Below are positions 7,306-51,400 of a stretch of 64,000 nucleotides of DNA, piece after piece (position 1 is the first letter of the stretch; each line of letters opens with the position of its first letter). Source of the stretch: Patescibacteria group bacterium (GTDB lineage Bacteria > Patescibacteriota > Microgenomatia > PFEM01 > JAHIFH01); the NCBI GenBank assembly GCA_035529375.1, contig DATKWU010000005.1, positions 521 to 64,520 on the forward strand, read 5' to 3'. The notes beneath the pieces were generated by a model. That model had not been told where the DNA came from, searched no databases, and worked only from the letters and a program-made list of their open reading frames with translations. The position numbers and the translations under genes are program-made.

Positions 7306-13803
<6,498 letters not shown>

Positions 13804-15832: not shown

Positions 15833-15906
15833 GGGCCTGTAGCTCAGTTGGCTAGAGCGTCGCATTCGCATTGCGGAGGTCGAGGGTTCGACTCCCTCCA
15901 GGTCCA
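15833..15906 (+). tRNA. tRNA-Ala (anticodon CGC)
   Basis: Cloverleaf folded by eye. Acceptor GGGCCTG/CAGGTCC with G3:U70. Anticodon loop TTCGCAT. T-arm GAGGG-TTCGACT-CCCTC. No encoded CCA. Confidence 0.85.
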
Positions 15907-15910
15907 CTCT

Positions 15911-15984
15911 GGGCCGTTAGCTCAGTTGGCTAGAGCGTCTGCATGGCATGCAGAAGGTCGCGGGTTCGACTCCCGCACGGTCCA
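15911..15984 (+). tRNA. tRNA-Ala (anticodon GGC)
   Basis: Acceptor GGGCCGT/ACGGTCC with G3:U70. Anticodon stem TCTGC/GCAGA, loop ATGGCAT. Lies 4 nt after the preceding tRNA-Ala. Confidence 0.85.
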
Positions 15985-16044
15985 CTTAAAAGTAACTTCT
16001 AGGCTTTTTGTTATAGGAAAAAACGAAAAAATAAGAGAATATTA

Positions 16045-32190: not shown

Positions 32191-35100
32191 TTAGCTGATT
32201 TTTTTCATTGGCAATTTCAGCCAAGAAGTTCCATTCCAGAACTCCAATGTTTTGCTTTCCACATTAAAGCCAAAAGTGCCCTTTTTAGCTTTCTTGGGCC
32301 GGCCAGTAGTGTTCCAAGAAGGAATGGAAACAGCCTTTAAGCCTAAATAACCCCTCTTGCTAACAACTTCCCTACCAACAATGAGGGGGTGTTTGTTAAA
32401 GATAACTGGCGCCGGAGGCGGAGTAGGAACAGGCCGAGGACTGGGCGAAGCTGAAGGTGAGGGGCTAATACTGGGTGAAGGTGTTGGTGAGGGTGAACCC
32501 GGTGTTGGTGAGGGTGATGGCGATGGGCTGGGGCTAGCAGACGTCGGTGAGGGTAGTGAGGGTGATGATGAAGGCGATGGAGATATTGAGCCACTGAGTG
32601 AGACCGACGGACTAAGACTAACGAGAATCGACGGTGAAACGCTTGGACTAATTGAGGCTGAGGGGCTGAGACTGGGTGAAACACTTGGACTAACTGATGC
32701 TGATGGACTAACGCTGGGTGAAACGCTTGGACTAACTGAAGCAGACGGACTGACCGATGGACTAGCCGAGGGGCTAAGCGATGGGCTGGCTGAAGGGCTA
32801 ACACTTGGACTAACTGAAGCAGAAGGACTAACGCTGGGTGAAACACTTGGACTAACTGATGCTGATGGACTGACACTTGGACTAGCCGAGGGGCTAAGCG
32901 ATGGGCTGGCTGAAGGGCTAACTGAAGGGGAAACACTGGCTGACGGAGAAACGCTAGGACTGACCGATAGACTGACCGAGGGACTCAGACTCGGTGAAAC
33001 AGACGGACTCAGACTCGGAGAGACACTTGGTGAAACTGACGGACTTAAAGAGGGACTAGCCGATGGTGAAATACTGGCACTCGGACTAAGGGAGGGACTA
33101 ACGCTTGGTGAAATTGAAGGAGACAAACTGGGACTCAAACTGGGAGATACCGAGGCAGATGGTGAAACACTTGGCGATATCGAAGGCGAAACCGATGGGC
33201 TTACTATCGGAGACAGACTTGGCGATACACTCGGTGAAATTGAAGGCGAGACCGAAGGGCTAGCACTCGGTGATACTGATGGACTAATACTGGGTGAAAT
33301 TGAAGAAGATACTGAAGCACTTGGTGATACCGATGGACTCACACTGGGTGATACTGAGGGACTAATTGACGGACTGACTGATGGTGAAGCAGATGGGCTA
33401 ACACTTGGAGAAACACTCGGTGAAACACTTGGACTGACGCTCGGCGAAACCGAAGCAGATGGTGAGACACTCGGCGATACTGAAGGAGAAAGCGATGGGC
33501 TCGCACTAGGTGAGGCCGACGGACTAATTGATGGGCTTACGCTTGGAGATGCGCTTGGTGATACTGAAGGGCTAATTGATGGTGATATCGAAGCCGAGGG
33601 AGATACTGAGGGGCTGATACTCGGAGAAACGGAAGGAGAAACTGATGGACTAACACTTGGAGAGACACTGGGGCTAATACTCGGGCTAACCGATGGCGAA
33701 ACACTAGGTGAAACACTTGGGCTGATCGAAGCAGAAGGACTAATTGATGGTGAAGCTGATGGGCTAATTGATGGTGAAGCAGAGGGAGATGCCGATGGTG
33801 AAACACTTGGACTAGCGCTTGGAGAAACACTGGGCGATACAGAAGCTGAAGGAGAAACGCTCGGACTCACAGAGGGTGAAATACTGGGTGAGACTGATGG
33901 ACTAGCTGATGGACTCACAGAGGGTGAAATACTGGGTGAAACTGAGGGACTAGCGCTTGGACTAATACTCGGACTGACTGAAGCGGAGGGTGAGACTGAT
34001 GGGCTGACAGATAGACTGGCACTGGGTGAAACAGACGGACTTACAGACGGTGAAACACTTGCCGATGGAGAGACTGAGGGTGAGATTGATGGCGAGACAG
34101 AGGGACTGACTGAGGGAGATGCCGATGGTGAAACTGATGGACTAGCGCTTGGACTAACACTCGGACTCACAGAGGGTGAGACACTGGGTGAGACTGAAGG
34201 TGAAACACTTGCCGATGGGCTGACTGACGGACTGACTGAAGGACTCACACTAGGTGAGACTGATGGGCTGACAGATACACCGATAGAGGGTGAAACTGAT
34301 GGACTTACTGAAGGCGAAACAGATGGACTGACACTGGGTGAAACTGAAGCCGATGGACTGACTGAAGGGCTGACTGAAGGTGAGACTGATGGACTAACTG
34401 ACGGAGAAACAGATGGACTGGCACTGGGTGAGACTGATGGGCTGACTGACGGAGAAGCAGATGGAGAAATTGAAGGTGAGACGCTGGCACTCGGTGAAAC
34501 GGATGGGCTTACCGATGGACTAACTGAAGGTGAAACTGAAGGAGAAACGCTAGGTGAAACACTCGGAGAAACAGACGGACTCACAGAGGGTGAGACACTT
34601 GCCGATGGAGAGACTGAAGGTGAAACTGATGGCGAGATAGACGGACTGACCGAGGGAGATGCCGATGGCGAAACAGATGGACTAGCGCTTGGACTAACGC
34701 TCGGACTCACAGAAGGTGAAACACTGGGTGAGACTGACGGTGAAACACTAGCTGATGGAGAGACTGAAGGTGAAACTGAAGGTGAAGCACTCGGAGATAC
34801 ACTCGGGGAAACTGAAGGCGAAACAGATGGACTAGCGCTTGGAGAAACAGACGGTGAAACACTTGCTGATGGACTAACTGAAGGAGAAACGCTGGGTGAA
34901 ACCGACGGGCTAGCGCTTGGACTAACGCTCGGACTGACTGAAGCGGAGGGTGATACTGACGGACTCACAGAGGGTGAAACACTGGGTGAGACTGATGGAC
35001 TAACTGAAGGCGAAACAGATGGACTAGCGCTTGGAGAAACACTGGGCGATACAGAAGCTGAAGGTGAAACGCTCGGACTCACAGAGGGTGAGACGCTGGG

Positions 35101-36333
35101 GCTTACTGAAGGACTTATAGATACACCGATAGAGGGTGAAACGCTTGGAGAGACAGACGGCGAAGCAGAAGGACTGACCGACGGTGAAACGCTTGCCGAT
35201 GGACTAACTGACGGGCTGACCGATGGTGAGACGCTGGGTGAGACTGATGGACTTACAGACGGACTGGCACTAGGACTCACTGAAGGACTAACTGAAGGAG
35301 AAGCAGAAGGACTGACTGAAGGTGAAACACTTGCGCTCGGTGAAACAGACGGACTGACCGAGGGTGAGACGCTGGGGCTGACAGACGGGCTCACACTGGG
35401 TGAAACTGATGGACTAACGCTTGGAGAGACAGACGGCGAAACGCTTGCTGATGGACTGACACTGGGACTCACTGAAGGACTAACTGAAGGAGAAACCGAT
35501 GGACTGACTGAAGGAGAGACTGAAAGCGAGACTGAAGGGCTAACACTCGGCGAAACACTCGGAGAAACCGATGGACTGGCTGAAGGTGAAATACTGGGAC
35601 TCACTGAAGGACTAACTGAAGGGCTCACACTAGCTGAGGGAGAAACTGATGGTGAAACCGATGGGGAAATCGATGGTGAAACAGATGGACTGACCGAGGG
35701 GGAAATCGATGGTGAAACAGATGGACTGACCGACGGGCTAGCACTTGGCGAAACACTCGGGGAAGCTGAAGGAGAAACCGATGGGGAAACACTGGGAGAG
35801 ACACTTGGACTGGCTGAAGGACCAGATGCCGTCAAAACCTGCGAGTGGGATTTATCTGTATCCAAAGGAATTATGGCGCCGGCAATTTTGACCCGGAAAT
35901 AATAGGTGGTGCTAGAAGAAACATTGGCCGTCGGGACAATACAAACATCAAATTCGTTATTCTTTTTTTTAGTAACCGCGCAAGTATAAGTACCGCTTTC
36001 AATGTATTGCCCTTGCGAGGTGGTGTCAGTCAAAAGCCATTGCCCAACCACAGGTGGAGAAGGATTCCCTTCGGTTGCTTGACCATCGGCATAATTCCAG
36101 TGATTAGCAGCACCAAAAGACGTCCAACCATCAATATCATTAAGGGAATACTCCATCGTCCAAGCCCCACTCCCGTTTGTGTTACCTGTTTCCCCAATAC
36201 GGATTCTCAATCTGGTCTTGTTGATATTATTGGGTAAGGTTGGCTTGGTATTTTCATTAGCCAGCTGGCTTGATGGTTCGATACCATCGTCCTGAAACCA
36301 TTTCCAATTTCCTTGGTTGGGTGTAAATGCCAT
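32191..36333 (-). CDS. Giant (1380 aa) protein: N-terminal ~170-aa globular domain, ~1100 aa of tandem [V/A/I/L]SPS tetrapeptides, Pro-rich linker, conserved ~55-aa C-terminal domain
   Basis: The non-repetitive N-terminus (MAFTPNQGNWKWFQDDGIEPSS...YYFRVKIAGAIIPLD) has no obvious signal peptide. About 275 VSPS/ASPS/ISPS/LSPS units follow. Then PSPSPSPTPGSPSPTPSP...PVPTPPPAPV. The C-terminus is shared with ORF 31915-32160. Confidence 0.8.
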   Translation of the reverse strand: MAFTPNQGNWKWFQDDGIEPSSQLANENTKPTLPNNINKTRLRIRIGETGNTNGSGAWTMEYSLNDIDGWTSFGAANHWNYADGQATEGNPSPPVVGQWLLTDTTSQGQYIESGTYTCAVTKKKNNEFDVCIVPTANVSSSTTYYFRVKIAGAIIPLDTDKSHSQVLTASGPSASPSVSPSVSPSVSPSASPSVSPSASPSVSPSVSPSISPSVSPSVSPSISPSVSPSVSPSASVSPSVSPSVSPSISPSASPSVSPSVSPSVSPSVSLSVSPSVSPSVSPSVSPSVSPSVSPSASVSPSVSPSVSPSVSPSVSPSVSPSVSPSVSPSVSPSASVSPSVSPSASPSVSPSVSPSASPSVSPSVSPSVSPSVSPSVSPSASVSPSVSPSASPSVSPSVSPSIGVSISPSVSPSVSPSVSPSVSPSASVSPSVSPSASPSVSPSVSPSVSPSVSPSVSPSVSPSASVSPSVSPSASPSVSPSVSPSVSPSASVSPSVSPSASPSVSPSVSPSVSPSASPSVSPSVSPSASVSPSVSPSVSPSVSPSVSPSASPSVSPSASPSVSPSISPSVSPSVSPSASVSPSVSPSVSPSVSPSVSPSVSPSVSPSVSPSVSPSASVSPSISPSASPSVSPSVSPSASPSVSPSVSPSVSPSVSPSVSPSASVSPSVSPSVSPSVSPSVSPSIGVSVSPSVSPSVSPSVSPSVSPSASVSPSVSPSVSPSVSPSVSPSASPSVSPSASPSVSPSVSPSISPSVSPSASVSPSVSPSVSPSASLSVSPSVSPSASVSPSISPSASPSVSPSISPSVSPSASPSVSPSISPSVSPSVSPSASVSPSVSPSASPSVSPSASPSASPSISPSASPSISPSASISPSVSPSVSPSVSPSISPSVSPSVSPSVSPSVSPSISPSVSPSASISPSISPSVSPSASPSVSPSISPSASPSASPSLSPSVSPSVSPSASVSPSVSPSVSPSVSPSVSPSASPSVSPSISPSVSPSVSPSVSPSASVSSSISPSISPSVSPSASPSVSPSISPSVSPSLSPIVSPSVSPSISPSVSPSASVSPSLSPSLSPSISPSVSPSLSPSASISPSASPSLSPSVSPSVSPSLSPSVSPSLSPSVSLSVSPSVSPSASVSPSVSPSASPSLSPSASPSVSPSASVSPSVSPSVSPSASVSPSVSPSASPSLSPSASPSVSPSASVSPSVSPSVSPSASVSPSVSPSLSPSASISPSVSPSILVSLSPSVSLSGSISPSPSSSPSLPSPTSASPSPSPSPSPTPGSPSPTPSPSISPSPSASPSPRPVPTPPPAPVIFNKHPLIVGREVVSKRGYLGLKAVSIPSWNTTGRPKKAKKGTFGFNVESKTLEFWNGTSWLKLPMKKIS
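32370..35820 (-). repeat. About 3.4 kb coding minisatellite: tandem 12-nt units (plus-strand register about GGTGARACNGAT/GGACTRACTGAA) encoding the SPS tetrapeptide array, ending in a Pro/Ser-rich tail
   Basis: 12-nt periodicity with many imperfect copies is visible throughout 32.44-35.83 kb. Shadow ORFs appear in several frames and on both strands. Confidence 0.9.
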
Positions 36334-40630: not shown

Positions 40631-41649
40631 GTTAGCTTTTGATATAGTTTGACTACGTTTTCAATATGATATGGTTCCGCCATTTTGATTAATTTTTCAG
40701 GCCATTGATCGTATTCTGCTTTTAACTTTTTAACTCCTGCCAGCAGTTCTTTCATATTGTTGGCAGGCAGATAGTAACCTTCAATTTCTTTGTAGCTTTT
40801 TAGCGGGTAGGCAACGGTAGGAACTCCAAATGAGGCGGCATTGATAATTTTAGTGGGTGTTTTGTGAATGCTCTGATCTCCCAACTCCCAGCCCCCGATT
40901 ACCAAAATGTCAATGTTTTTGTAAAAATTAGCAGCATCTTCCCTCCCTTCAAACTTAAAACAAGTAACAAAATCAAAACCTATTTCTTTAACGGCCCTCC
41001 CTATTCGCCCATATATTTCTCTCGCAATTGGCGAAACGCTTCCGGTATATCCACAAGTATTAACTTCCTTCCGTTCTCTTCTTTGCCCTTCCCAATTGAG
41101 GTGGTGATGAGGGATAAGAACGACTTTGTTCGCTAAATGATTTTTCAGCCAATCGTAACTTCTCTTTGAGGCGGCGATTAAATTAATCCCTGGTCTTTTT
41201 TTCAGCTTTTTAATAAACTTGCCTCCATCCAAAACATCTACCCAGTCGCCATCCTCAATATCGTCTAAATTACTTGGCTTAAGATAAATGCAGACATCGT
41301 TCTTGTATTTTTTCTTTGGGTTAATTCTGGCACCCAAAAACTTAGCCATCTGATATCCTCTTATTTCTGTTGAAAGATAGCCTCCATGCTTCTTAGGCCA
41401 AAAAATGCTAATCATCCTTTCTTTGATATTCCTTCTTTCATCGAAATATTCGTTGATAGCATTGACCAGCTCTGAACTAAATCTTTTTAAATCCTGAAGT
41501 TCCTTGGCGTCTTTTTTTGTGCGTTTATCTCTTTGAACTTTATCGACCAAATGAAATATTTTAATGTTGGTTATTCCCAGTTCGTCAATTAATGCTCCTA
41601 TTGTCTTTTTCATACAAACTTTCTCCTTAAATTTTTTGCTTTTCCCCAA
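40627..41649 (-). CDS. GT-B (family 1-like) glycosyltransferase, tentative
   Basis: C-terminal region DILVIGGWELGDQS...KIINAASFGVPTVAYP resembles the nucleotide-sugar-binding half of GT1 enzymes. The N-terminal ~60 aa are Lys-rich. Confidence 0.4.
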   Translation of the reverse strand: MGKSKKFKEKVCMKKTIGALIDELGITNIKIFHLVDKVQRDKRTKKDAKELQDLKRFSSELVNAINEYFDERRNIKERMISIFWPKKHGGYLSTEIRGYQMAKFLGARINPKKKYKNDVCIYLKPSNLDDIEDGDWVDVLDGGKFIKKLKKRPGINLIAASKRSYDWLKNHLANKVVLIPHHHLNWEGQRRERKEVNTCGYTGSVSPIAREIYGRIGRAVKEIGFDFVTCFKFEGREDAANFYKNIDILVIGGWELGDQSIHKTPTKIINAASFGVPTVAYPLKSYKEIEGYYLPANNMKELLAGVKKLKAEYDQWPEKLIKMAEPYHIENVVKLYQKLT

Positions 41650-42272
41650 ATGGGAATATCATAAGCTCTTACTGGCCAAGGATATTTTCTTCTTCTTTGA
41701 TTTAATTTATCCATCGATTTCTGGTGGTAAAAACTAACTACTGGCGCTTTGGTATAAAATGTTTCAGCTTTTATCAAATCATATTTAAGCATTACCCGTT
41801 TATCTCCTAATTCCCCATGTAAACCATGACGCATCTTATCCAAGTTTTGAAGCCTATTTTCAATTGCTTTTATTATTGCGTTACGAGTGGCTATCATCAA
41901 CCCACCACCACAACGGGGCTTATGAAAATAGTATGATCTCCCCCATGTAAAAAGATGCCACCTATTCAGATTGTAAAAGAACCCTTCTTTATTTGGTCTA
42001 AATTGAAAGTGTTGTTCAGGATAAAGAGTGTCATCGTCTGCTATGGCTATGTAGGGAGTTTTAGCTAGCTTTGCCCCCCTTAACTTTTGCTCAAAGAGAT
42101 TTACTACCCCGTATTCCGTCTGAATCAAGTTCTTTCCCCAATCTAATGGCTTGCGTGAAATAGTAATTATTGGGCAACCACCAGACGCTTCCAATAGTTT
42201 TTCCTTATGAAACTCCGCCCACTTTTCAGGCACTAGGTTTGGTGTACACATTATTATTGTTAAATCCTTCAT
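41610..42272 (-). CDS. Unknown-family protein; paralogue of ORF 39959-40630
   Basis: See the paralogue entry. ADDD and W-rich motifs. Confidence 0.5.
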   Translation of the reverse strand: MKDLTIIMCTPNLVPEKWAEFHKEKLLEASGGCPIITISRKPLDWGKNLIQTEYGVVNLFEQKLRGAKLAKTPYIAIADDDTLYPEQHFQFRPNKEGFFYNLNRWHLFTWGRSYYFHKPRCGGGLMIATRNAIIKAIENRLQNLDKMRHGLHGELGDKRVMLKYDLIKAETFYTKAPVVSFYHQKSMDKLNQRRRKYPWPVRAYDIPIWGKAKNLRRKFV

Positions 42273-42553: not shown

Positions 42554-43614
42554 TTATTAAATGTCTCCCCTATGTAATTAACATCTTCTATCGTTATCCG
42601 ACTATGAAGCGGAAGATAGAAATACTTATCTTCCAACCTATTCATATTCGGCAATTCCTGTTTCTTCTTACCAAACACTTCAAAGATGTCGTTCCTCAGT
42701 TGAACCAAGTCGCACTCAATGCCATTCTCTCGAAGGTATCTTATTAGCTCATCCCTTTCGTCTGACAGAATCATAAATAGCCAATAAGAACCACCACATA
42801 TCTTCCTATAAGAGGATAACTTTTTCATATAGGCTTCACATAAAGTTTTCCTGTACTCTAGGATTTCGTCTGTGTATTTAAGTCCTATTAATCCCAAGGT
42901 GGCGGCGATATCGTTCATATGGAACTTATAACCAGCCTCTTTAATTTCTTGAGCCATCTGGTGATTAACAACGCATCTCCACCCTGCTCGCTTTTTGGCT
43001 TCTCTGTCAATACCAAACCACCTTAATCTTTTAGCCCGATTGTAAATCTGTTTATTCCTAACCACCAACATCCCACCATCACCAGTAGTAAAATGCTTAA
43101 TCGCCTGAAAAGAGTAACAAATATAATCCCCATAGTCCTCACTTATTCCAAGTGACTGGGCAGCATCTATTACAACTGGCACTCCGTAACGCTTGGCGAT
43201 AGTAAAGATTCTCTTATCAACCTGAAGTCCACCCAAATTGACTACCACCAATGCCTTTGTTTTGTTACTTATTTTTTTCTTGACATCATCATAGTTCACC
43301 AAAAAATCTTCGTTAATATCTAAAAAATTAATATTGGCTTCTCTGTGGAGTAACGGCAGATTAGTTGCGGTACAAGTAAAAACAGCAGTTAAAACTTCAT
43401 CACCGCTCCCAATCCCGATAAGATGATATGCTAGTTCCAAGGCAGCCGAACCACTATTTACGCCTAGGCAATATCCATAGCCAAATTTCTTCCCAAAGGC
43501 TTTCTCAAATTCCTCTACTTTCGGTCCTTGCCCAAGCCATCTGGTATCGAATATCTTGGATAACTCCTCTAACCATTCTTCTTTATATATTTGTGGATGA
43601 AATAACTGAATCAC
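42535..43614 (-). CDS. DegT/DnrJ/EryC1/StrS-family PLP-dependent sugar aminotransferase
   Basis: GDEVLTAVFTCTATN, DAAQSLG, SFQAIKHFTTGDGGMLVV (PLP-lysine context). 359 aa. Confidence 0.8.
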   Translation of the reverse strand: MIQLFHPQIYKEEWLEELSKIFDTRWLGQGPKVEEFEKAFGKKFGYGYCLGVNSGSAALELAYHLIGIGSGDEVLTAVFTCTATNLPLLHREANINFLDINEDFLVNYDDVKKKISNKTKALVVVNLGGLQVDKRIFTIAKRYGVPVVIDAAQSLGISEDYGDYICYSFQAIKHFTTGDGGMLVVRNKQIYNRAKRLRWFGIDREAKKRAGWRCVVNHQMAQEIKEAGYKFHMNDIAATLGLIGLKYTDEILEYRKTLCEAYMKKLSSYRKICGGSYWLFMILSDERDELIRYLRENGIECDLVQLRNDIFEVFGKKKQELPNMNRLEDKYFYLPLHSRITIEDVNYIGETFNKWNSKK

Positions 43615-44537
43615 TATACCCTCCTTACAATTGTTGTCTTGTAACCAAGATGTTCCAAAATTTCCTTTCGGTGGTTGCCGTCAAGGATTTTGTAATGCTT
43701 ATTAACGATAATCGGCTCCTTGATGCCAAACTTTTTAACATCCCAATACATTCTTACCTTGTCATACATCCATTTTTCCAAATCCTCTCGTGGCTTGCGT
43801 CGGTGTTTTTTACAAAACATCTTAAAATATCTGGTCTGTAGAGGATGAACTCCTTGGTCTAATTCCGAATAATACATTCCCTGAACGTGATTACCCCTGA
43901 GCAACTTATTTAGTTCCACCCTTTCTAAACATGGGTTTTTAAAGCAATAAGATTCCAAACTCCTCGGGCGGGGATCGTCCTCCGTTGAGAGTTGGGGAAC
44001 ATGGCTAACTAACTCCCAATTTTTAAAATACCTTAAGATATTATGTTTATATCCTGAGGCCATACAAAAGTATTCTTTTTTACGAATGGCGGTGATAATG
44101 CAATACCTTGCCTTTTTTTGGAGGATATCCAATAAATCAAGCCATTCCTGAACCAACAAATAGTAGTGCGAGTTGATAAAGGACATGTAGTCAGCCACAG
44201 GTATCGCATCGATCAAATCCTGCATCCGACCACATCTCAAACTATACCTACCGCTAACTTTGGCCTGATAAGCCAATCCTCTTTCAACCGCTTCAGGATT
44301 AAATTCAGTCCCTACCACTCTCTCAAACCCCATATCTTCAGCAAATTTCAAAAACAAACCAGCATTGGTACCCATATCTACATAGGTTAGGCCTTTAACG
44401 TTCCCGTTAAAGTGGGGAACGACATAATTATTCCACTTACTTTTGCCCCAAAACTTACTGTTAATCTGTTTATCAGTCAGATCAGTTTTAACCCCATCCT
44501 CTAAATACTGGTAGTTAGTAAATTTCATTTGAACCAC
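43614..44537 (-). CDS. SAM-dependent methyltransferase-like protein (FkbM-like motif I) with a C-terminal domain of unknown function
   Basis: YVDMGTNAGLFLKFAEDMGFERVVGTEFNPEAV resembles methyltransferase motif I/II. C-terminal ...LDGNHRKEILEHLGYK unassigned. Confidence 0.4.
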   Translation of the reverse strand: MVQMKFTNYQYLEDGVKTDLTDKQINSKFWGKSKWNNYVVPHFNGNVKGLTYVDMGTNAGLFLKFAEDMGFERVVGTEFNPEAVERGLAYQAKVSGRYSLRCGRMQDLIDAIPVADYMSFINSHYYLLVQEWLDLLDILQKKARYCIITAIRKKEYFCMASGYKHNILRYFKNWELVSHVPQLSTEDDPRPRSLESYCFKNPCLERVELNKLLRGNHVQGMYYSELDQGVHPLQTRYFKMFCKKHRRKPREDLEKWMYDKVRMYWDVKKFGIKEPIIVNKHYKILDGNHRKEILEHLGYKTTIVRRV

Positions 44538-45331
44538 TTAGGTACAATTTCTTTTTCATAATAATCACGCCAAATTTTTAAAGTGTAAGCAAACCCATCT
44601 CTAGCTTCTTGGCCACCGTAGCCATGAGTCCGGGGGAATTTGCGGTGTTTGTGGGCGTGCCAAGTGTTTTTGTTGACCATCAACTTTCCGCCCGCTTGCC
44701 AAGTTTTGAACTGCATTTCGTGTGAATCTTGGTAGTGGGTTCCATACCCTCCGCTTTGCAGTTCGCCAATGACCTCATCCCACCATTTTTTCTTCATCAC
44801 CCAACAAGACCCCTGCATTGCCATCGTTTCATCCAACACGATTTCTTTCCTTTCTTTAGCTCTCCTCGGCCAATTAAGACCTGAAAACTTTTCTGTTTTG
44901 CCTCCTTTACCATCGCTGACTTTGCCGATAATTAACTTCATATAATCAACTGGGGGAATATCCATTACCTCCCATTTCTCAACATCCAGAAAGTAGCGTC
45001 TTGGGGTAACAATCCAGCTGTGTTTAATTTGGGAAGTTAATATCTTGTCATAGCCTTTGGCAAAAGTGGCGTGTTCGTCTGTCCGCATAATGTATTTGCC
45101 CCGAGCAACTCTTATACCGCAGTTGATGGCGTTCCTCATGCCCTGATTTTTGCCAAGATGAATCACTCTTAGGCGGGGGTCATCTTTTAATTGGGGGTTG
45201 GGCCAATAGCCGTCCAAAATAGCGATTACCTCAAGTCTTTCTCCCAAGACAGAGTTTGCCAATAGAGAATCGGTCGTCTTTTGGAGCAGAGGATCCTTGT
45301 AACTTGGAATGATCACCGATAGATTTATCAT
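44525..45331 (-). CDS. Family 2 glycosyltransferase (paralogue of ORF 36559-37665)
   Basis: LSVIIPSYKDP...VIAILDGYW...RTDEHATF. Shares QGSCW and WQAGGKLMVNKNTWHAHKH with the paralogue. Confidence 0.7.
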   Translation of the reverse strand: MINLSVIIPSYKDPLLQKTTDSLLANSVLGERLEVIAILDGYWPNPQLKDDPRLRVIHLGKNQGMRNAINCGIRVARGKYIMRTDEHATFAKGYDKILTSQIKHSWIVTPRRYFLDVEKWEVMDIPPVDYMKLIIGKVSDGKGGKTEKFSGLNWPRRAKERKEIVLDETMAMQGSCWVMKKKWWDEVIGELQSGGYGTHYQDSHEMQFKTWQAGGKLMVNKNTWHAHKHRKFPRTHGYGGQEARDGFAYTLKIWRDYYEKEIVPKWFK

Positions 45332-45413
45332 TATTAATTTCTTTCCACCCTCTTAATAAGACAAGCCCCAACTTTAAGAAGATTGCCGGGGCAGCAAATT
45401 CGGCTCTCATCTT

Positions 45414-46064
45414 TTATAGGAAGACTCGATCATAGTAATCGTATTTCAGGTTTTCTCGAATATTCCAGCTGTTAGGAAAGTTTGATTGGCCTTTGGTATA
45501 ACGGAAAGAGCCCGCACCGCCTTCTTTCATAATAAACCAATTGCCTTTTGTGTCGATGAATCCGAAATAAGAGATTTCACTTTCGTCTATCTCGACAATT
45601 TGATAACCATCGGTGGGTTGAGTTTCGGCGGGATGGATCGTTTCGCCAGTGGGGGCTTTGAGAGCCATGACTCCTGAATCTGGAGCTCCTCCTATTAGCA
45701 AACCCTCAGTCTTTCTGGCAAGAATGGAGTAGATGAAGTAAGAAATGCCAGCACCGGCGGCTAATTTGAGAAAGGCACGCTTGTCGAGATCGACAATCAC
45801 GGGCTTCTCTGCCTTCTCTTTTTTTTCATTTACTGATGGAGGTGGGGTTGATAATTTTTGGGAGTGAATAACATTGGCTTTCCGCGGAAAAAGGATTAAG
45901 CCAAAGTAGACTAGTAAGGGATAGAAGACAGCAACAATGATCAATTGTTTGTAAGAAACGGCAGTGATAAAAGCAACTACCACTGCCAAGATAGCAATGA
46001 TAAAAATGGGGTAAAACATAAAATGTCTTTTGTTCAGGACGGTATTTGTATGTGTTTGTTGCAT
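45414..46064 (-). CDS. Membrane protein of unknown function (N-terminal two TM helices, C-terminal soluble domain)
   Basis: Hydrophobic N-terminus MFYPIFIIAILAVVVAFITAVSYKQLIIVAVFYPLLVYFGLILF. No motif recognised. Confidence 0.5.
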   Translation of the reverse strand: MQQTHTNTVLNKRHFMFYPIFIIAILAVVVAFITAVSYKQLIIVAVFYPLLVYFGLILFPRKANVIHSQKLSTPPPSVNEKKEKAEKPVIVDLDKRAFLKLAAGAGISYFIYSILARKTEGLLIGGAPDSGVMALKAPTGETIHPAETQPTDGYQIVEIDESEISYFGFIDTKGNWFIMKEGGAGSFRYTKGQSNFPNSWNIRENLKYDYYDRVFL

Positions 46065-46078
46065 TAGTTTACCTTTTT

Positions 46079-47350
46079 TTATATTTCTTCTACTAATAGT
46101 TCTACAACGCTTGCTGATATAAAAGCAGTTGACCCATTATCGAGTTTAATTTCGTACCAACCTGAATTTTCGGAAACAAATTCAAAAGTGTCACCGTTTT
46201 TAGCTTCACCAATTACTTTTGAATCAGTTGTTGGACTTTGGCGAATGTTAGCGCTGGCTGATTCATCAATTTTAACTACCAGCATTGAGGTCTGTCCTAA
46301 AATTTGCGTTGAGGTCTGTTCCGGAGTTTGTGTAGGGGCCTGTTCCAAGGTTTGTGTAGAAGTCCGTCTTAAAATTTGTGTTGAAGCCTGTCCTAAAGCT
46401 TGTGTTAGAGACTGTTTCAAAGTTTGTGTTGAGACCTGTTCCGAGGCCTGATGGATGAGAGTGAGTATAGGGTTGTTTCTTTGGGTGGAGGAAAACCGAA
46501 TGTTCAGAAAACTAGAAGTAAAAAGAACCGCGAAGAAAAAAGAAGCGGCAGCAAACTCAGGGATCCTTTGGTAGATTTTTAATGGAGCGTAAGCCACTGT
46601 TCCTCTGGTAACGTTTCTCTTTGCAAGCGTAAGCATATTCTTTTCAAGATAGCCTGATTCTTTTTCAATAATTATCCTTTCAAGTAATCTTTTTTCCCTT
46701 TGGTTGAGGTTATATTTTTCAACAAAATCTTTATAGCTTTTAATGCCTTTAAGAAACTCATTTTTAAAATTTTCAAAAAATGATAAGACGGTACTTGCTT
46801 TAACCCAGGAAGTTTTTCTTTTACCCAAATAGTCTGCATAAGATGAATAACTGTCAATTAAATTATTACCTTTTTCTTCTTGGAGATGTTGGTGGAGGTA
46901 ATGAGTCATGTTTAGCAGACAGGTGGCATCATTGATAGATACTGATTTATAAGGTCCGCCGAAAAGAGAACCTTGACGCTGATATTTTTTATTGAAATAG
47001 ATAGAGTATTTTGTTGATAGAGACCTCATAAAACCCTCAAGAGAGTCTTTGGCGATTGGACATAAGAGCAAATGAAAATGATCAGGTGTTAGACAATAAG
47101 CAATTAGTTCAACTTTATTGAAATAATTTTTAGGTTGATGCGGTACGCCCCGAAAAGCGCGCCCTTTGACAGTGAAGGTTTTCTGGAGATCTTCAGATTT
47201 TTTGGGAAGAGTCAAATAGTCCTCCAGATGACTAAGAAAAACTTCGTAATCCTGTTTATCATTAAAGATGATTCCGTTTGCAATCCCCCGATTGTAGACA
47301 TGAAAGTAAATTTTACCTTTATTTGTTTTTTTAAGGCCTTGAGCAGTCAT
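46079..47350 (-). CDS. HuH-Y1 (IS200/IS605 TnpA-like) transposase-like domain fused to a hydrophobic segment, a Gln/Thr-rich octapeptide repeat and a C-terminal bacterial SH3-like domain
   Basis: N-terminus KGKIYFHVYNRG...LTPDHFHLLL (HuH) ...KKYQRQG. Middle TQTLKQSLTQALGQASTQILRRTSTQTLEQAPTQTPEQTSTQILGQTS. C-terminus KVIGEAKNGDTFEFVSENSGWYEIKLDNGSTAFISASVV (SH3b-like). Confidence 0.6.
   Translation of the reverse strand: MTAQGLKKTNKGKIYFHVYNRGIANGIIFNDKQDYEVFLSHLEDYLTLPKKSEDLQKTFTVKGRAFRGVPHQPKNYFNKVELIAYCLTPDHFHLLLCPIAKDSLEGFMRSLSTKYSIYFNKKYQRQGSLFGGPYKSVSINDATCLLNMTHYLHQHLQEEKGNNLIDSYSSYADYLGKRKTSWVKASTVLSFFENFKNEFLKGIKSYKDFVEKYNLNQREKRLLERIIIEKESGYLEKNMLTLAKRNVTRGTVAYAPLKIYQRIPEFAAASFFFAVLFTSSFLNIRFSSTQRNNPILTLIHQASEQVSTQTLKQSLTQALGQASTQILRRTSTQTLEQAPTQTPEQTSTQILGQTSMLVVKIDESASANIRQSPTTDSKVIGEAKNGDTFEFVSENSGWYEIKLDNGSTAFISASVVELLVEEI
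46283..46452 (-). repeat. About seven tandem ~24-bp coding repeats (GAGGTCTGTTCC-RRG-TTTGTGTT-like) encoding the TQ-rich octapeptide repeat
   Basis: Direct 24-nt periodicity is visible. The shadow ORF 46188-46451 on the plus strand reads as a VCVEVCS repeat. Confidence 0.8.
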
Positions 47351-47411
47351 GTTTCAAACTTACCATGCGAACAAAGGGGTTACAAGTACCAATTTGAGGC
47401 TAAAAAAACTG

Positions 47412-47547
47412 CCTTTAAAGGAGAAAAGATGTAAGGTTTATCTTGCAAGGAGTATTAAGGCGATCAAAAAAGCTAGGTAAATTAGGGCAAAACACTCGCT
47501 TTAAAGGAGAAAAGGTTTTAAGCTTTATCTTGCAAGGATTATTCAGG
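47412..47547. repeat. Two copies of a ~48-nt intergenic direct repeat (CTTTAAAGGAGAAAAG-TAAG-TTTATCTTGCAAGGA-TATT-AGG), each centred on the palindrome CTTGCAAG
   Basis: Copies at 47412-47460 and 47499-47547, roughly 85% identical. Located in a 515-bp intergenic region between divergent genes. Confidence 0.6.
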
Positions 47548-47913
47548 AGGTCACCAGCAGGAAGAAAGGAGTTTTGTGAGAATCTCGGAGTAGATAGGGC
47601 GCAATGGTTATCAGCATGACATACTAGATGATAATGTATGGAAAATTAATTAAATTTATGGATTTTTTCCTTCCTTCTTATGCCCTACCACCAGAAGACT
47701 AATCGGCTTTAAGTCCAGTCCCAACAATTCTTTCGTTTTTTTCATTAAATGATCCCGACCCTTACTCATTATTTTTTAATCTTTTTGTCTTCACTAGGAT
47801 CAATATTTAGAGAAATAAGCAAGTTTTTAAAGACTTTTGATTAAACCTTGACAAAGTTATAAATATTGATTATTCTTTTTATTAGTACATTTTATTTTAT
47901 TTTCTTTAATCTT

Positions 47914-48228
47914 ATGCAACATCAAAAGAACTGGTTTACCATTTCAGAAGCGGCTAAACATCTTGGTGTCTCCCCTGATACTCTGCGTCGCTGGGAAAAA
48001 GCTAAAAAAATTCCTGCCCCAACAAGAACAGCTGGTGGTGCCCGACGTTATTCGAAAGATCTCTTAAACGAAATCCTAGGTAAAGGCAAGGAAGAAAAGA
48101 AAGCTAGTCAACCAACAAAACCAGAATCTCAAGGTAAATCTTCTAATAAAAAACAGCTTCTAATAGGCTTAATCGCGGCAATTACTACCATGGCTATCTT
48201 TCTCCCTCTTCTCTTTTTCCTTCTCTAA
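47914..48228 (+). CDS. MerR/excisionase-type HTH DNA-binding protein with a C-terminal TM anchor
   Basis: Preferred start MQHQKNW. WFTISEAAKHLGVSPDTLRRWEKAKKIP is an HTH_17/MerR-like motif. C-terminal LLIGLIAAITTMAIFLPLLFFLL is hydrophobic. TTGACA lies at 47849-47854 upstream. Confidence 0.55.
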   Translation: MQHQKNWFTISEAAKHLGVSPDTLRRWEKAKKIPAPTRTAGGARRYSKDLLNEILGKGKEEKKASQPTKPESQGKSSNKKQLLIGLIAAITTMAIFLPLLFFLL

Positions 48229-48389
48229 AAGTTAGGCAAAATTAATCTCCAAACCTCTCATTAAAAATATGAAAGAAAAGGATACTGCCTGCGCAGAATC
48301 CCAAAGTAAAAATATTTTACTCCTTCCTGGGCAGGAAAAATAAGATTTGATTTGGCAGGAATTGGACAGAAGTAGATATATTTTTTACC

Positions 48390-49205
48390 TTAATTAGAAG
48401 TTGATGTTAAGTAGTTTACTATCTTATCAGCAACATTAACTTTGCATAACTTATCATAAACCCTAAATTGAGGACTGCGATTAACCTCGATAACCATTAA
48501 TCTTTTTTTATCAGCTAGTAAATCTACTCCAGCAAACTCAACCTTAAAAACTTTAGTAGCTTTAAGAGCCAGACTTTCTATCTCATTTTGATCAACTTCT
48601 GGTCCTTTCCCCTCTTCTGAATTAACAAATCGCTCATTTGTTTTTCTTTCCATGATTCCTAGAGATTGATTACCCAAAACAATCACCCGCCAATAAACCG
48701 GAGTTTTGATTAATGGCTGGTAAAACCAGTTACCTGAATAGGATTTTTTTGCCTGCTCAATTTGTGGTTGATTTTCAACTCTTATCACTCTTTTTGAATG
48801 ACTGCCAAACTCGGCTTTAAGAATAGCCGGAAAAATTGGCTTATCCAAAGTAGGAATCGTTGGTAAATTATTCTCCTTCAAAACCTCTGCTTGTCTAATT
48901 TTACCTAACTTTGGCCAACTCAAATAAGCTTCCTTATTCAAACATCTAGTTCTCCTGGGTAAGGCTTTAATTAAGGCCATTTTTTCTCTTAGAAATGATT
49001 TTTTGTGACGATGAGCCGCTGAACGAGGAATAACAAAATCAAAATCCTCTAGCTCTAAACCTTGGGGTAAAAAAAGCTTGCTTTTGCTAAATTCTATATC
49101 TTGGTAATTGATGATTTCTGGTTTAATCCCCTTGTATTTAGCAGATTGAGCGAGCCTCTGAGGTTCATATTCAGGTGGAAAGCGAGTAAGAATAAGAAGC
49201 TTCAC
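48390..49205 (-). CDS. RimK-like ATP-grasp ligase (paralogue 3)
   Basis: ATP-grasp C-terminal signature AGVDLLADKKRLMVIEVNRSPQF. Its 4-nt overlap with the upstream gene suggests an operon. Confidence 0.6.
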   Translation of the reverse strand: MKLLILTRFPPEYEPQRLAQSAKYKGIKPEIINYQDIEFSKSKLFLPQGLELEDFDFVIPRSAAHRHKKSFLREKMALIKALPRRTRCLNKEAYLSWPKLGKIRQAEVLKENNLPTIPTLDKPIFPAILKAEFGSHSKRVIRVENQPQIEQAKKSYSGNWFYQPLIKTPVYWRVIVLGNQSLGIMERKTNERFVNSEEGKGPEVDQNEIESLALKATKVFKVEFAGVDLLADKKRLMVIEVNRSPQFRVYDKLCKVNVADKIVNYLTSTSN

Positions 49206-50080
49206 TTTCGGGCTTTTTTAATCAAATACCTAATGATTTCTTTGGCGACGTCAATCTTGGTTCTCTTTTCAAAAACTTCGAACTGAGGGGCTTCATTAAC
49301 TTCAATAACGACTGGCTGATTATTTCGCTTGTCTAAAACCATATCAACTGAAGCAATTTCTACTTTCAAAGCTCGACAAGCTTTCTCTGCTTCTTCTTTA
49401 ATTGCCTGAGGAATTGTTTTCAAAACCTCTGATGAACCTACTGAACGATTCAAAACCAATTTTTCCTCTTTTTTCTGTCTCTTAAAACCGCCTAGAACCT
49501 GATAACCAATCAACATTAATCGATAATCACCGTCGTTAGGAACGTATTCCTGAAGCAAAAAGCCTGTTTTTTCAATCCTTCCTTTAATGGCTCGTTCTAA
49601 AACTTCCTTATCCTTAATTAATAAAGTTCCCATTCCCTGTCTGCCTCCCTTAGAAATCTTTAAAACAAAAGGATATTGAAAATTCTTAGCTTCCTCTAAT
49701 AATCTTTCTTTATTGGAAGCAAAACTTGTTTTGGGATAATTAATCTTATCCCCAGCTAGAATAACGCCACCAATGCTCTTAGCTCTCTTTTCCAAGCCTA
49801 AATCAGTTAAATAGTCATCAACAACAGGAATTTTATGCCTCTGAGCATAAAGAATAAGTAAGTTTGCCCATTCTGTCGCTCCTCCCACTGCCCGAAAATA
49901 GAATAAATTAAAATCTGCTAAAGATTCACCTTCATATAAAATTTTAAATTCGTTCCCCTTTTGTCTCAGGGTCAAATCATCATATTGGATTGGGATCAAT
50001 TCAATCCCTTCCTTTTTAGCGGATTCTAAAAATTTCTCTCCGGTATCAAACCAAACTCGATAAAATAAGGCAATTTTCAT
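49202..50080 (-). CDS. RimK-family ATP-grasp (alpha-L-glutamate ligase-like) enzyme (paralogue 2)
   Basis: YPFVLKISKGGRQGMGTLL...ASVDMVLDKRNNQPVVIEVNEAPQFEVF, typical RimK motifs. Confidence 0.7.
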   Translation of the reverse strand: MKIALFYRVWFDTGEKFLESAKKEGIELIPIQYDDLTLRQKGNEFKILYEGESLADFNLFYFRAVGGATEWANLLILYAQRHKIPVVDDYLTDLGLEKRAKSIGGVILAGDKINYPKTSFASNKERLLEEAKNFQYPFVLKISKGGRQGMGTLLIKDKEVLERAIKGRIEKTGFLLQEYVPNDGDYRLMLIGYQVLGGFKRQKKEEKLVLNRSVGSSEVLKTIPQAIKEEAEKACRALKVEIASVDMVLDKRNNQPVVIEVNEAPQFEVFEKRTKIDVAKEIIRYLIKKARK

Positions 50081-51400
50081 TTAAATTCTCCTAAATTGGG
50101 CTGATTCTATTGGCTCTGGTCTAACTAAAAAGCCCATCAAGTCCCTTAAACCTACTAAGAAAGGTGTTTTTAGGTGTGAACGCCTGGTAACACTAGCACT
50201 GGTTTTAATTCTCCTGCCTTTTAAGTAAAAAGTCAAACTAATTACTTTCCTTTCTTTCCTCTTACCTAGAGCCGATTGATAGTAACGGGTGAAAATCGTG
50301 TTCTCTGGAGTCAATAAGCCCAATTCTTCGGCCAGTTTTTTATCAATCGAGCTCCTTAGAGCTCCGGTATCTATCTTTGCTAAAACAGAGACTGTTTTCT
50401 TATTCGCCGCCTTAATCTTAACTTCCTCGAGAACATTAATAATTTTAGCCCCTTTTTTAGCAAGAACTTTATCAGCAAACCGCTCAGCAAAAAGGTCTTG
50501 GGCAATCTTTACCCCCTTTTCGGCTCCATCGACTGTTAAGCCTTCAACCCTCGCTAATCTCCCTCGTAAGGGCGCTAGATTAGCATTCTGAATATCTAGC
50601 CCCGGTCGAGCATTAAGTTCTAGAATCATTGGTCCTTTTTCCTTATCTAAAATGATATCAACTCCGAAAAAGCCTAACTGAGAAACAACTTCCTGAATTT
50701 TAACCGCTAAAATTAAGGTTTCTTCCCAAAAAGGTAACTTTAAACCATTAATTTTCTTCTTTGTCCCCGGAATAAGCTTAACTCTTCTGCCATTATAAAA
50801 GCCATAGGTCGTGATGCCGGTAGCTAAATCAATTCCCACTCCAATCGCTCCCTGGTGGAGATTAGCCTTTCCTCGAGATTCAGGCGTGGGTAAACGAAGC
50901 ATAGCCATTACCGGCACCTTATTAAAAACGATTATTCGAATATCGGGTGTCCCTCGATAAGTATATCTTTTAAAAATTGGGTGAATTTTAACTCGTTCTT
51001 CAACAAAAGCTTTGTCAGGTAGATTATGAAGGCTAAAACGCCCAGCAAAGATATCAAGAATATGTTGTCTGATTTGACTGATATCAATCTTCTCATCTCC
51101 CATTAAATACCATTCCCCTGCCCATTTGCCTTTTTTCTTAATGACTAAAATTCCATCTCCACCTAAGCCTCGACTTGGTTTAACGACGAAATTACCTGGT
51201 AGTTTTTCCCATTGAAAATTATTCAAATCTTCAATTGTCTCAAAAACTGCGTAAAGTTTAGGATGAGGCAGATTATGCCTGCTGAGAATTTTTTTGGTTA
51301 AAAGCTTAGAATCAGCAATCTTCCTCCCTCTTTTTTTATTAAAGCGGAGATAAACTTGATTACGGGCATTTTTACCTAGGAGATAATAGGTCTTTGCCAT
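50081..51400 (-). CDS. ATP-grasp ligase domain fused to a C-terminal retropepsin-like (DTGA) domain of the RimK-associated so-called Zn-protease family
   Basis: N-terminal ATP-grasp-like region. C-terminal SVLAKIDTGALRSSIDKKLAEELGL carries a D-T-G-A aspartic-protease signature, as in the family found next to RimK-like ligases. Confidence 0.6.
   Translation of the reverse strand: MAKTYYLLGKNARNQVYLRFNKKRGRKIADSKLLTKKILSRHNLPHPKLYAVFETIEDLNNFQWEKLPGNFVVKPSRGLGGDGILVIKKKGKWAGEWYLMGDEKIDISQIRQHILDIFAGRFSLHNLPDKAFVEERVKIHPIFKRYTYRGTPDIRIIVFNKVPVMAMLRLPTPESRGKANLHQGAIGVGIDLATGITTYGFYNGRRVKLIPGTKKKINGLKLPFWEETLILAVKIQEVVSQLGFFGVDIILDKEKGPMILELNARPGLDIQNANLAPLRGRLARVEGLTVDGAEKGVKIAQDLFAERFADKVLAKKGAKIINVLEEVKIKAANKKTVSVLAKIDTGALRSSIDKKLAEELGLLTPENTIFTRYYQSALGKRKERKVISLTFYLKGRRIKTSASVTRRSHLKTPFLVGLRDLMGFLVRPEPIESAQFRRI

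Follow-up and report, generated by a model that had tools for sequence, protein, structure and literature searches.

What is a transposase-like Y1/HUH domain doing in a membrane-anchored protein that ends in an SH3b domain? The question is raised by one gene, here called HUH-TM-SH3b (TM, transmembrane), in a 64,000-nt stretch of a Patescibacteria group bacterium genome (assembly GCA_035529375.1, contig DATKWU010000005.1, positions 521 to 64,520) that we refer to as the window. The gene lies on the minus strand (46079..47350) and encodes 423 aa plus a stop from an ATG start; it is defined by the open reading frame (ORF) list, Pfam, an AlphaFold2 model and more than 350 full-length homologues. 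New cell functions have repeatedly arisen from domesticated transposases, and the domesticated bacterial Y1/HUH proteins that we found described are soluble and RAYT-like. Here the HUH fold appears to have been built into an envelope-spanning membrane protein of the Microgenomates, in a large and conserved family. The Microgenomates are ultra-small and uncultured, much of their genome has no assigned function, and the cell surface is central to their symbiotic life.

Our observations concern the architecture of the protein, its conservation, its pairing with a second gene, its synteny and the decay of its catalytic motif. The reading that we favor, by analogy and with a probability of roughly 0.4, is that the HUH domain is a domesticated, mostly non-catalytic nucleic-acid-binding module in a trans-envelope pair resembling ToxR/ToxS.

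Domain architecture of the HUH-TM-SH3b protein

From the N-terminus, the product consists of a Y1/HUH domain, a helical extension, one TM helix, a run of TQ-rich octapeptides and an SH3b domain. An earlier sequence-only reading of the window had proposed a HUH-type domain, a hydrophobic segment, octapeptides and SH3b, and each of these features was recovered where it had been placed. Pfam matched Y1_Tnp (PF01797) at aa 78-154 (E 4.8e-8, 33.6 bits against a cut-off of 23) and SH3_3 (PF08239) at aa 366-416 (E 9.6e-14, 51.8 bits against a cut-off of 27). The AlphaFold2 model, built from 49 homologues, has a mean predicted local distance difference test (pLDDT) score of 77.7, rising above 90 across most of the Y1 and SH3 domains. 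It shows a confident Y1 fold with its helical extension (aa 12-230), a helix at aa 263-282, a disordered linker and an SH3 barrel at aa 356-419. A Foldseek comparison with the PDB returned two groups of structures, with E values between 3e-5 and 3e-4. The Y1 group comprised ISDra2, IS608, IS200, a Sulfolobus TnpA and the REP-associated transposase 4er8, with probability 1.00 to ISDra2, IS608, IS200 and the RAYT; the SH3b group comprised 2krs, 2kt8, 4krt and 9ovi, from endolysins and NlpC/P60 proteins. NCBIfam gave sub-threshold matches only (EntA-type SH3 regions, and REP_Tyr_transpos at 22 bits against a cut-off of 80), and PHROGs only weak SH3b-type matches to lysis proteins.

The HUH domain and its active site

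The Y1/HUH core spans aa 12-154 (46889..47317, minus strand), as delimited by Pfam Y1_Tnp, Foldseek and the highest regional conservation in the protein, and it includes a conserved, family-specific β-hairpin insert at aa 47-77 (GxPHQPKNY). The HV-x-x-RG motif and HUH triad named in the sequence-only reading are both present, the first as H17-V-Y-N-R-G near the N-terminus and the second as H91-F92-H93 (47072..47080, minus strand; codons CAT TTT CAT). In a profile of the N-terminal domain, these two histidines align with H67 and H69 of ISDra2 TnpA, and they are kept in 95% (H91) and 99% (H93) of 118 close homologues.

The tyrosine singled out in that reading, Y123 in KKYQRQG, exists and is 89% conserved, but it does not occupy the catalytic position. 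In the profile hidden Markov model alignment, the catalytic Y132 of ISDra2 (KYIESQ; the title of PDB entry 2xo6 reads "Y132F mutant") falls on Y151 in the helix MTHYLHQH (46898..46900, minus strand), which rules out Y123. Y134 was likewise ruled out, as it aligns with ISDra2 Y116 (NPSY) in a stretch modeled by AlphaFold2 as a strand. Soluble paralogues of the protein, described below, carry the class-2 signature YIHxNP exactly at the Y151 position. The alignment of Y151 with Y132 and the presence of YIHxNP at the same position in soluble relatives together indicate that the HUH domain derives from class 2 (RAYT-like).

Within the superfamily, the context of the tyrosine is Y---Q in class 1, Y---NP in class 2 and Y----Q in class 3; N119 of E. 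coli TnpA_REP has been assigned a metal-ligand role, and a serine motif beside the catalytic Tyr has been described for class-2 subclasses (Quentin et al. 2018, PMC6006769). The TnpA_REP active site comprises Y115, H59/H61, N119, H123 and E161 (Messing et al. 2012, PMC3479197). The window protein reads Y-L-H-Q-H-L-Q, with Q at +3 and +6 and H at +4, so that the class-1 Y---Q motif is absent, and H155 at +4 from Y151 replaces the class-2 Asn. This Y-x-H-x-H arrangement is conserved across the nine-member subclade of the window protein, which is among the minority of members keeping HUH, Tyr and a possible replacement ligand. The helical C-terminal extension of the domain (aa 165-235; 46646..46858, minus strand), recognized from AlphaFold2 helices and conservation, contains a conserved YSSY serine motif, W182 and Y206.

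Catalytic decay in the membrane-anchored branch

Patescibacteria genomes in GTDB also hold soluble paralogues of ~205-230 aa, which consist of the Y1 core plus the extension and often occur as several diverged copies per genome. We aligned 347 distinct sequences to one profile and compared the soluble group (n = 99) with the membrane-anchored group (n = 245, most of them 50%-identity cluster representatives). Tyr is found at the catalytic position in 95% of soluble but only 57% of membrane-anchored sequences, where it is replaced by His (36), Phe (31) and others. Asn at +4 falls from 84% to 10%, and the complete Y---NP motif from 78% (77/99) to a single sequence of the 245. The first and second HUH histidines are present in 96% and 99% of soluble and in 82% and 91% of anchored sequences, and HUH and Tyr are both intact in 92% and 52%, respectively. 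The sequence-only reading had put forward the conservation of HUH and Tyr in homologues as a check. In the anchored branch the histidines are largely kept, whereas the Tyr is often replaced and the Asn is essentially lost.

These losses of Tyr are scattered: 51 of the 105 non-Tyr members have a Tyr-bearing nearest neighbor, and 27 have a neighbor with a different substitution. At the same time, no part of the protein is better conserved than the HUH core. Mean identity to the window protein, taken over 109 homologues at most 61% identical overall, is 60% for the HUH core, 56% for SH3b, 48% for the C-terminal extension, 37% for the TM helix, 16% for the juxtamembrane stretch and 7% for the linker. 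Scattered catalytic losses beside a core conserved to this degree imply that selection keeps the fold and not the chemistry. On the evidence of these alignments, then, HUH in the anchored branch is conserved as a fold rather than as an enzyme. With soluble paralogues that keep the catalytic signature and an anchored branch that drifts, the family offers a clean natural experiment in neofunctionalization.

One of the soluble paralogues, of ~224 aa in locus L018 (L018 positions 11116-11790), is flanked by a 34-nt direct repeat of 91% identity (11057-11090 and 11811-11842). A second soluble paralogue, 63% identical to it, lies 5 kb away.

Membrane topology, stalk and SH3b domain

The single TM helix, IPEFAAASFFFAVLFTSSFLNIR (aa 263-285; 46496..46564, minus strand), was identified from hydrophobicity and from the AlphaFold2 helix at aa 263-282. 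All 118 full-length homologues have one hydrophobic 19-mer (Kyte-Doolittle score ≥ 1.65) in the same position. Within the helix, F273, L276, G280 and N283 are invariant or near-invariant. This exceeds what a passive anchor needs and suggests that the helix makes helix-helix contacts.

Since a folded N-terminal domain of ~260 aa without a signal peptide is followed by one TM helix, then an S/T/P-rich stalk and SH3b, we infer an N-in/C-out orientation. The HUH domain would then lie in the cytoplasm and the stalk and SH3b domain outside, an assignment that draws on the absent signal peptide and the identity of the domains. The sequence-only reading had called the combination an odd topology. This was not borne out, as the TM helix conserved in 118/118 homologues would put HUH and SH3b each in its usual compartment. 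It had also envisaged that both domains might share one compartment within a known family that accounts for the fusion; the orientation given here would separate the two domains, and no known family explaining the fusion was found.

The stalk is encoded by a 24-bp tandem repeat array (46285..46442, minus strand; TRF period 24, 6.6 copies, 70% matches), which would form an extracellular linker. It reads as seven octapeptides: HQASEQVS, TQTLKQSL, TQALGQAS, TQILRRTS, TQTLEQAP, TQTPEQTS and TQILGQTS. Such TQ octapeptides are confined to a clade of ~80% identity, with ~5 to 8 units, and a 61% relative has about two; other family members have unrelated low-complexity linkers rich in S/T/P/E, and linker length across the family ranges from 34 to 151 aa. 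The 24-bp repeats are thus a lineage-specific spacer. Slipped-strand variation at these repeats, raised in the sequence-only reading, is consistent with change in stalk length over evolutionary time, but not with an on/off switch, as the units keep the reading frame and match one another at only 70%.

The SH3b domain occupies aa 356-419 (46094..46285, minus strand) and was assigned from Pfam SH3_3 and from PDB sequence matches to 4krt and 2krs. Foldseek superposed it on 2krs, 2kt8 and 9ovi with TM-scores of 0.75-0.80 and root-mean-square deviations of 1.5-2.3 Å. It is present in 241 of 246 membrane-anchored members, two of which have two such domains; the five without it look truncated. Both sequence and fold are shared with the SH3b domains of endolysins and NlpC/P60 hydrolases (PF08239; 4krt, 2krs, 9ovi). 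Unlike those proteins, the window protein carries no hydrolase domain.

Family distribution

A protein search over 5.8 billion sequences gave 353 matches, and the family amounts to more than 350 clusters at 90% identity. Among the matches listed, query cover was 97-100%, with both Y1_Tnp and SH3_3 present. The source names of the homologues are Patescibacteria, Microgenomates and Woesebacteria, and their product labels read only "SH3 domain-containing protein" or "putative transposase". The HUH-TM-SH3b family does not extend beyond the Microgenomates branch of Patescibacteria. When aa 1-262 were used as the query of an exhaustive HMMER search, 195 clusters passed E ≤ 1e-30 and 2133 passed E ≤ 1e-10. 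The reading frame of the gene is intact in every locus examined. A full-text literature search found no description of a Y1_Tnp plus SH3 protein or of a membrane-anchored HUH protein. A classification of the TnpA_Y1 superfamily lists DnaA-like and helix-turn-helix (HTH) C-terminal additions, and the words "SH3" and "transmembrane" are both absent from its text (Quentin et al. 2018, PMC6006769).

A three-TM partner and conserved synteny

Immediately downstream of HUH-TM-SH3b is a gene for a 216-aa protein with three TM helices (45414..46064, minus strand), which starts 14 nt past the HUH gene's stop. Wherever a Y1-TM-SH3b locus includes DNA beyond the end of the gene, a homologue of this partner lies directly downstream, overlapping the gene or within ~20 nt of it; the ~70 soluble-paralogue loci have no such neighbor. 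The partner has no match in Pfam, PADLOC or PHROGs; none of its 152 homologues has a name, and all are from the lineages in which the HUH-TM-SH3b family occurs. According to the alignment and the AlphaFold2 model, its N-terminal part contains two TM helices followed by a variable charged loop. The third TM helix is preceded by a conserved D-I-D-K-R-A-F-L-K motif, and the C-terminus forms a domain of four strands plus a helix (pLDDT > 90) that, in the modeled arrangement, should lie outside the cell.

Two minor observations concern the partner. The D-I-D-K-R-A-F-L-K motif and the hydrophobic helix after it (aa 88-122) resemble a Tat signal, placed mid-protein after two TM helices. The NCBI annotation gives a 201-aa product that starts at an internal Met.

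Synteny around the gene is conserved across 11 loci, from 80% down to 29% identity. In three loci at 80% identity (L086-L088) the order is RimK, RimK, a divergent MerR-type gene, an optional nitroreductase, HUH-TM-SH3b, the partner and a family-2 glycosyltransferase (GT2). At 61% identity (L089), the core of HUH-TM-SH3b, partner and GT2 is present, and the upstream genes of the 80% loci are missing. In six loci at 29-47% identity (L001, L003, L004, L006, L007, L047), this three-gene core recurs and is followed by glycosyltransferase, sugar-nucleotide and methyltransferase genes, and Wzy_C/TPR or large membrane proteins are often found upstream. All loci with downstream sequence have GT2 or sugar-nucleotide genes after the pair; downstream genes near it include GT2, a DegT aminotransferase and a methyltransferase. 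In the window, the GT2 gene (44525..45331, minus strand; Pfam Glycos_transf_2) is the first of a co-directional block of envelope-glycan genes downstream of the pair.

Comparison with RAYT and IS200/IS605 transposases

The HUH-TM-SH3b gene is not a mobile element. It is present in a single copy within the window, where a repeat search found no insertion sequence (IS) ends and no dispersed REP-like palindromic repeats; the window-wide repeats are limited to coding repeats in a pair of giant genes, two tRNA genes and the duplicated leader described below. The absence of inverted repeats and of tnpB, noted in the sequence-only reading, held up, as the flanking arms are only 71-75% alike and AT-rich, and the gene neighbors are the membrane protein and a MerR-type HTH gene. 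Searches of a phage collection (one match, at 29% identity) and of plasmids ("transposase" matches at 24-29% identity only) gave no link to a mobile element. The proposal of a domesticated, non-mobile HUH domain tethered to SH3b is supported by the 11-locus synteny, by the single copy in the window and by the lack there of IS ends, tnpB and REP-like repeats.

RAYT/TnpA_REP proteins of class 2 (E. coli YafM, PDB 4ER8) share the Y1/HUH fold (Foldseek 4er8_A, E 9e-5). As in that group, the gene is single-copy (in the window), vertically inherited and domesticated, a serine motif follows the Tyr helix, and YIHxNP of class 2 is found in the soluble Patescibacteria paralogues. The window protein differs from RAYTs in having no flanking REP/REPIN in the 64 kb, in the loss of Y---NP and the dispensability of Tyr in its membrane-anchored branch, in the insert of ~30 aa forming a β-hairpin between helix A and strand 2, and in its fusion partners, a TM helix and an SH3b domain predicted to lie outside the cell. 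IS200/IS605 TnpA proteins (ISDra2, IS608, IS200) share the fold and the HUH motif and provide the best PDB matches (2xma, 2xo6, 2xm3; E 3e-5 to 6e-5), yet sequence identity is only 13-16%. They are single-domain proteins of ~130-150 aa that carry Y---Q and belong to elements with subterminal hairpins, several copies and, in many cases, tnpB; the window gene shares none of these traits.

A divergent HTH protein and a duplicated leader

Divergent from HUH-TM-SH3b is a gene for a 120-aa tail-anchored protein with a MerR/HTH_17 domain and a C-terminal TM helix (47866..48228, plus strand; Pfam MerR E 4.8e-16). It also matches the PADLOC model mad1 (E 1.3e-12), and it is a conserved divergent neighbor in the three 80% loci. 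In three cluster representatives (P0041, P0082 and P0139), a MerR/HTH_17 domain is instead fused in frame at the N-terminus, ahead of the HUH domain, and two of these three carry Phe at the catalytic Tyr position. The tail-anchored HTH of the window and the fused N-terminal HTH are 55% identical (E 6e-14). That the HTH is split off in the window and fused in these representatives argues that the cytoplasmic end deals with DNA, and the tail-anchored protein is the probable DNA-binding partner of the HUH-TM-SH3b system. We also considered a defense system and dropped the idea: PADLOC had no match for the HUH protein or the three-TM partner, and the HTH protein alone matches mad1.

Upstream of the HUH gene, a repeat search identified a leader element in two 65-70-nt copies 87 nt apart (47397-47466 and 47484-47553), each containing the palindromes CCTTTAAAGG and CTTGCAAG. 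The element is ~86% conserved in L086 and L087, with a single copy in each of these loci and two in L088. The divergent HTH protein might use these copies as operators. Rfam gave no match at E ≤ 1 across 45000-48500, the RNA fold of the 220-nt leader had a z-score of 0.33 and so no structure signal, and a promoter/terminator scan was at chance level, with 7 promoter-like sites against 7.0 expected.

A proposed trans-envelope pair and its alternatives

ToxRS, TcpPH and VtrAC are bitopic DNA-binding regulators with a co-encoded membrane partner. The protein described here resembles ToxR/ToxS in layout, with a cytoplasmic N-terminal domain, one TM helix, an extracytoplasmic domain, and a small membrane partner with an outer β domain encoded directly downstream. 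There is no homology, however: the cytoplasmic part is HUH instead of an OmpR-type winged helix, SH3b takes the outer position, and the partner has three TM helices and an unmatched fold, so this is an analogy and not membership. PASTA kinases (PrkC/PknB) and RsgI anti-sigma factors likewise link a cytoplasmic effector, by way of one TM helix, to a wall-polymer-binding domain outside the cell. The wall-sensing layout is similar, but the effector here would be HUH rather than a kinase or anti-sigma domain.

By this analogy, we propose a bitopic N-in/C-out protein whose RAYT-like class-2 HUH domain would face the cytoplasm, while its SH3b domain, on a flexible stalk, would reach the wall. The HUH domain would be retained as a nucleic-acid-binding and probably metal-binding fold, not as a transposase, with both the nucleophile Tyr and the Asn metal ligand dispensable across the family. 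HUH-TM-SH3b and the downstream three-TM protein would form an obligate pair or complex, which in the window lineage the divergent tail-anchored MerR-type HTH protein probably joins. The state of the wall, or contact with a surface, could in this way be coupled to DNA at the inner membrane face. The probable target would be the adjacent envelope-glycan genes, which are suggested because the pair sits ahead of them.

A more specific version of this proposal, which we hold only tentatively, casts the HUH fold as the cytoplasmic DNA-binding output of a new signaling pair in bacteria of the candidate phyla radiation. SH3b and the outer domain of the partner would sense contact with the wall or a host surface, and the conserved TM helices would relay this to HUH (and the MerR-type HTH), which would control the envelope-glycan genes. 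A subset of members, including the window protein, may still nick single-stranded DNA at the membrane, to judge from the residues that they retain. If the signaling version is true, HUH proteins anchored in the membrane and HUH domains recruited for signaling would both have their first example here. HUH-TM-SH3b, the three-TM partner and the tail-anchored HTH protein together make a defined, clonable and testable module.

Several points weigh against the trans-envelope pair. Topology, DNA binding, complex formation and regulatory output are its inferred parts, and the charge bias at the TM helix is weak (K+R 2.8 before versus 1.9 after). We know of no HUH domain that serves as the DNA-binding domain of a transcription factor. 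The fold of the partner has no significant match in the PDB, where the best E value was 0.13 (Polo-box, Pur-alpha) and is not meaningful. No conserved operator or hairpin was identified, and the leader repeat is conserved within the ~80% clade only, at about the level of coding DNA. The MerR neighbor was rejected as a family-wide partner, as its conservation is limited to the same clade. Finally, H17, HUH, Y151 and a His at +4 are all retained in the window protein, which may therefore still be catalytic.

The alternative that survives best, although we think it somewhat unlikely, is a scaffold for envelope assembly with no nucleic-acid role. The HUH domain would then be a protein-interaction or metal-binding module that organizes or controls the downstream glycan enzymes, while SH3b and the partner position the complex in the wall. 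The invariable linkage to glycosyltransferase and sugar-nucleotide genes is what such a scaffold would predict, and a catalytic motif that decays while the fold stays, as well as conserved TM residues next to a membrane partner, would be equally at home in it. A pure scaffold role, however, leaves the retained HUH histidines unexplained, and it sits poorly with the DNA-binding HTH fused in three representatives and the same HTH type encoded next door in the window.

Less probable still is an active, membrane-tethered nickase or transesterase acting on single-stranded DNA at the inner face, with SH3b placing the enzyme at particular wall sites. The substrate of such an enzyme could be incoming single-stranded DNA, processed as it is taken up, or a hairpin site carried by the chromosome or an episome. 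The window protein has the residues for it (H17, H91/H93 and Y151), the His at +4 could replace Asn, Y-x-H-x-H is conserved across the nine-member subclade, and HUH and Tyr together with N/Q/H at +4 survive in 30 of 245 members. A strongly constrained HUH core and histidines kept in 82-91% of the family also point in this direction. Against this, 43% of members have Phe, His or another residue in place of Tyr, the outcome of many independent replacements, and Y---NP has been lost in 244/245; the window contains no hairpin or REP-like targets, and no competence or transfer genes adjoin the locus.

Highly improbable is a decaying relic with no function of its own, in which an IS200-like or RAYT-like gene died and became joined by chance to a wall-binding protein. 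The many losses of Tyr and of the NP motif and the weak Pfam score (33.6 bits) would fit it, but the conservation data contradict it: the architecture is intact in 241/246 anchored members, the family has more than 350 clusters at 90% identity, conservation peaks in the HUH core (60%), many residues outside the active site are invariant, and the reading frame is intact in all examined loci.

Other features of the window

Upstream of the locus are three consecutive ATP-grasp genes (48390..51400, minus strand), two of them RimK-like and one associated with sugar transfer and fused to an aspartyl/Zn-protease-like C-terminus; this block is conserved in close relatives. At ~47662-47742 (minus strand) there is a remnant of the last ~27 nitroreductase codons, with 89% identity to the intact L086 gene, which indicates that the gene has been deleted here. 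Two genes of the glycan cluster, encoding 307 aa (43614..44537, minus strand) and 220 aa (41610..42272, minus strand), have no Pfam match.

Elsewhere in the window, two long ORFs presumably encode repetitive surface proteins. One, of 2122 aa (7435..13803, plus strand), has short in-frame tandem repeats with a 9-bp period at 9062-9600, and the other, of 1380 aa (32191..36333, minus strand), has repeats with a 12-nt period across 32441-35800. Tandem tRNA-Ala genes with anticodons CGC and GGC, 81% identical to each other, are located at 15833-15985 (plus strand).

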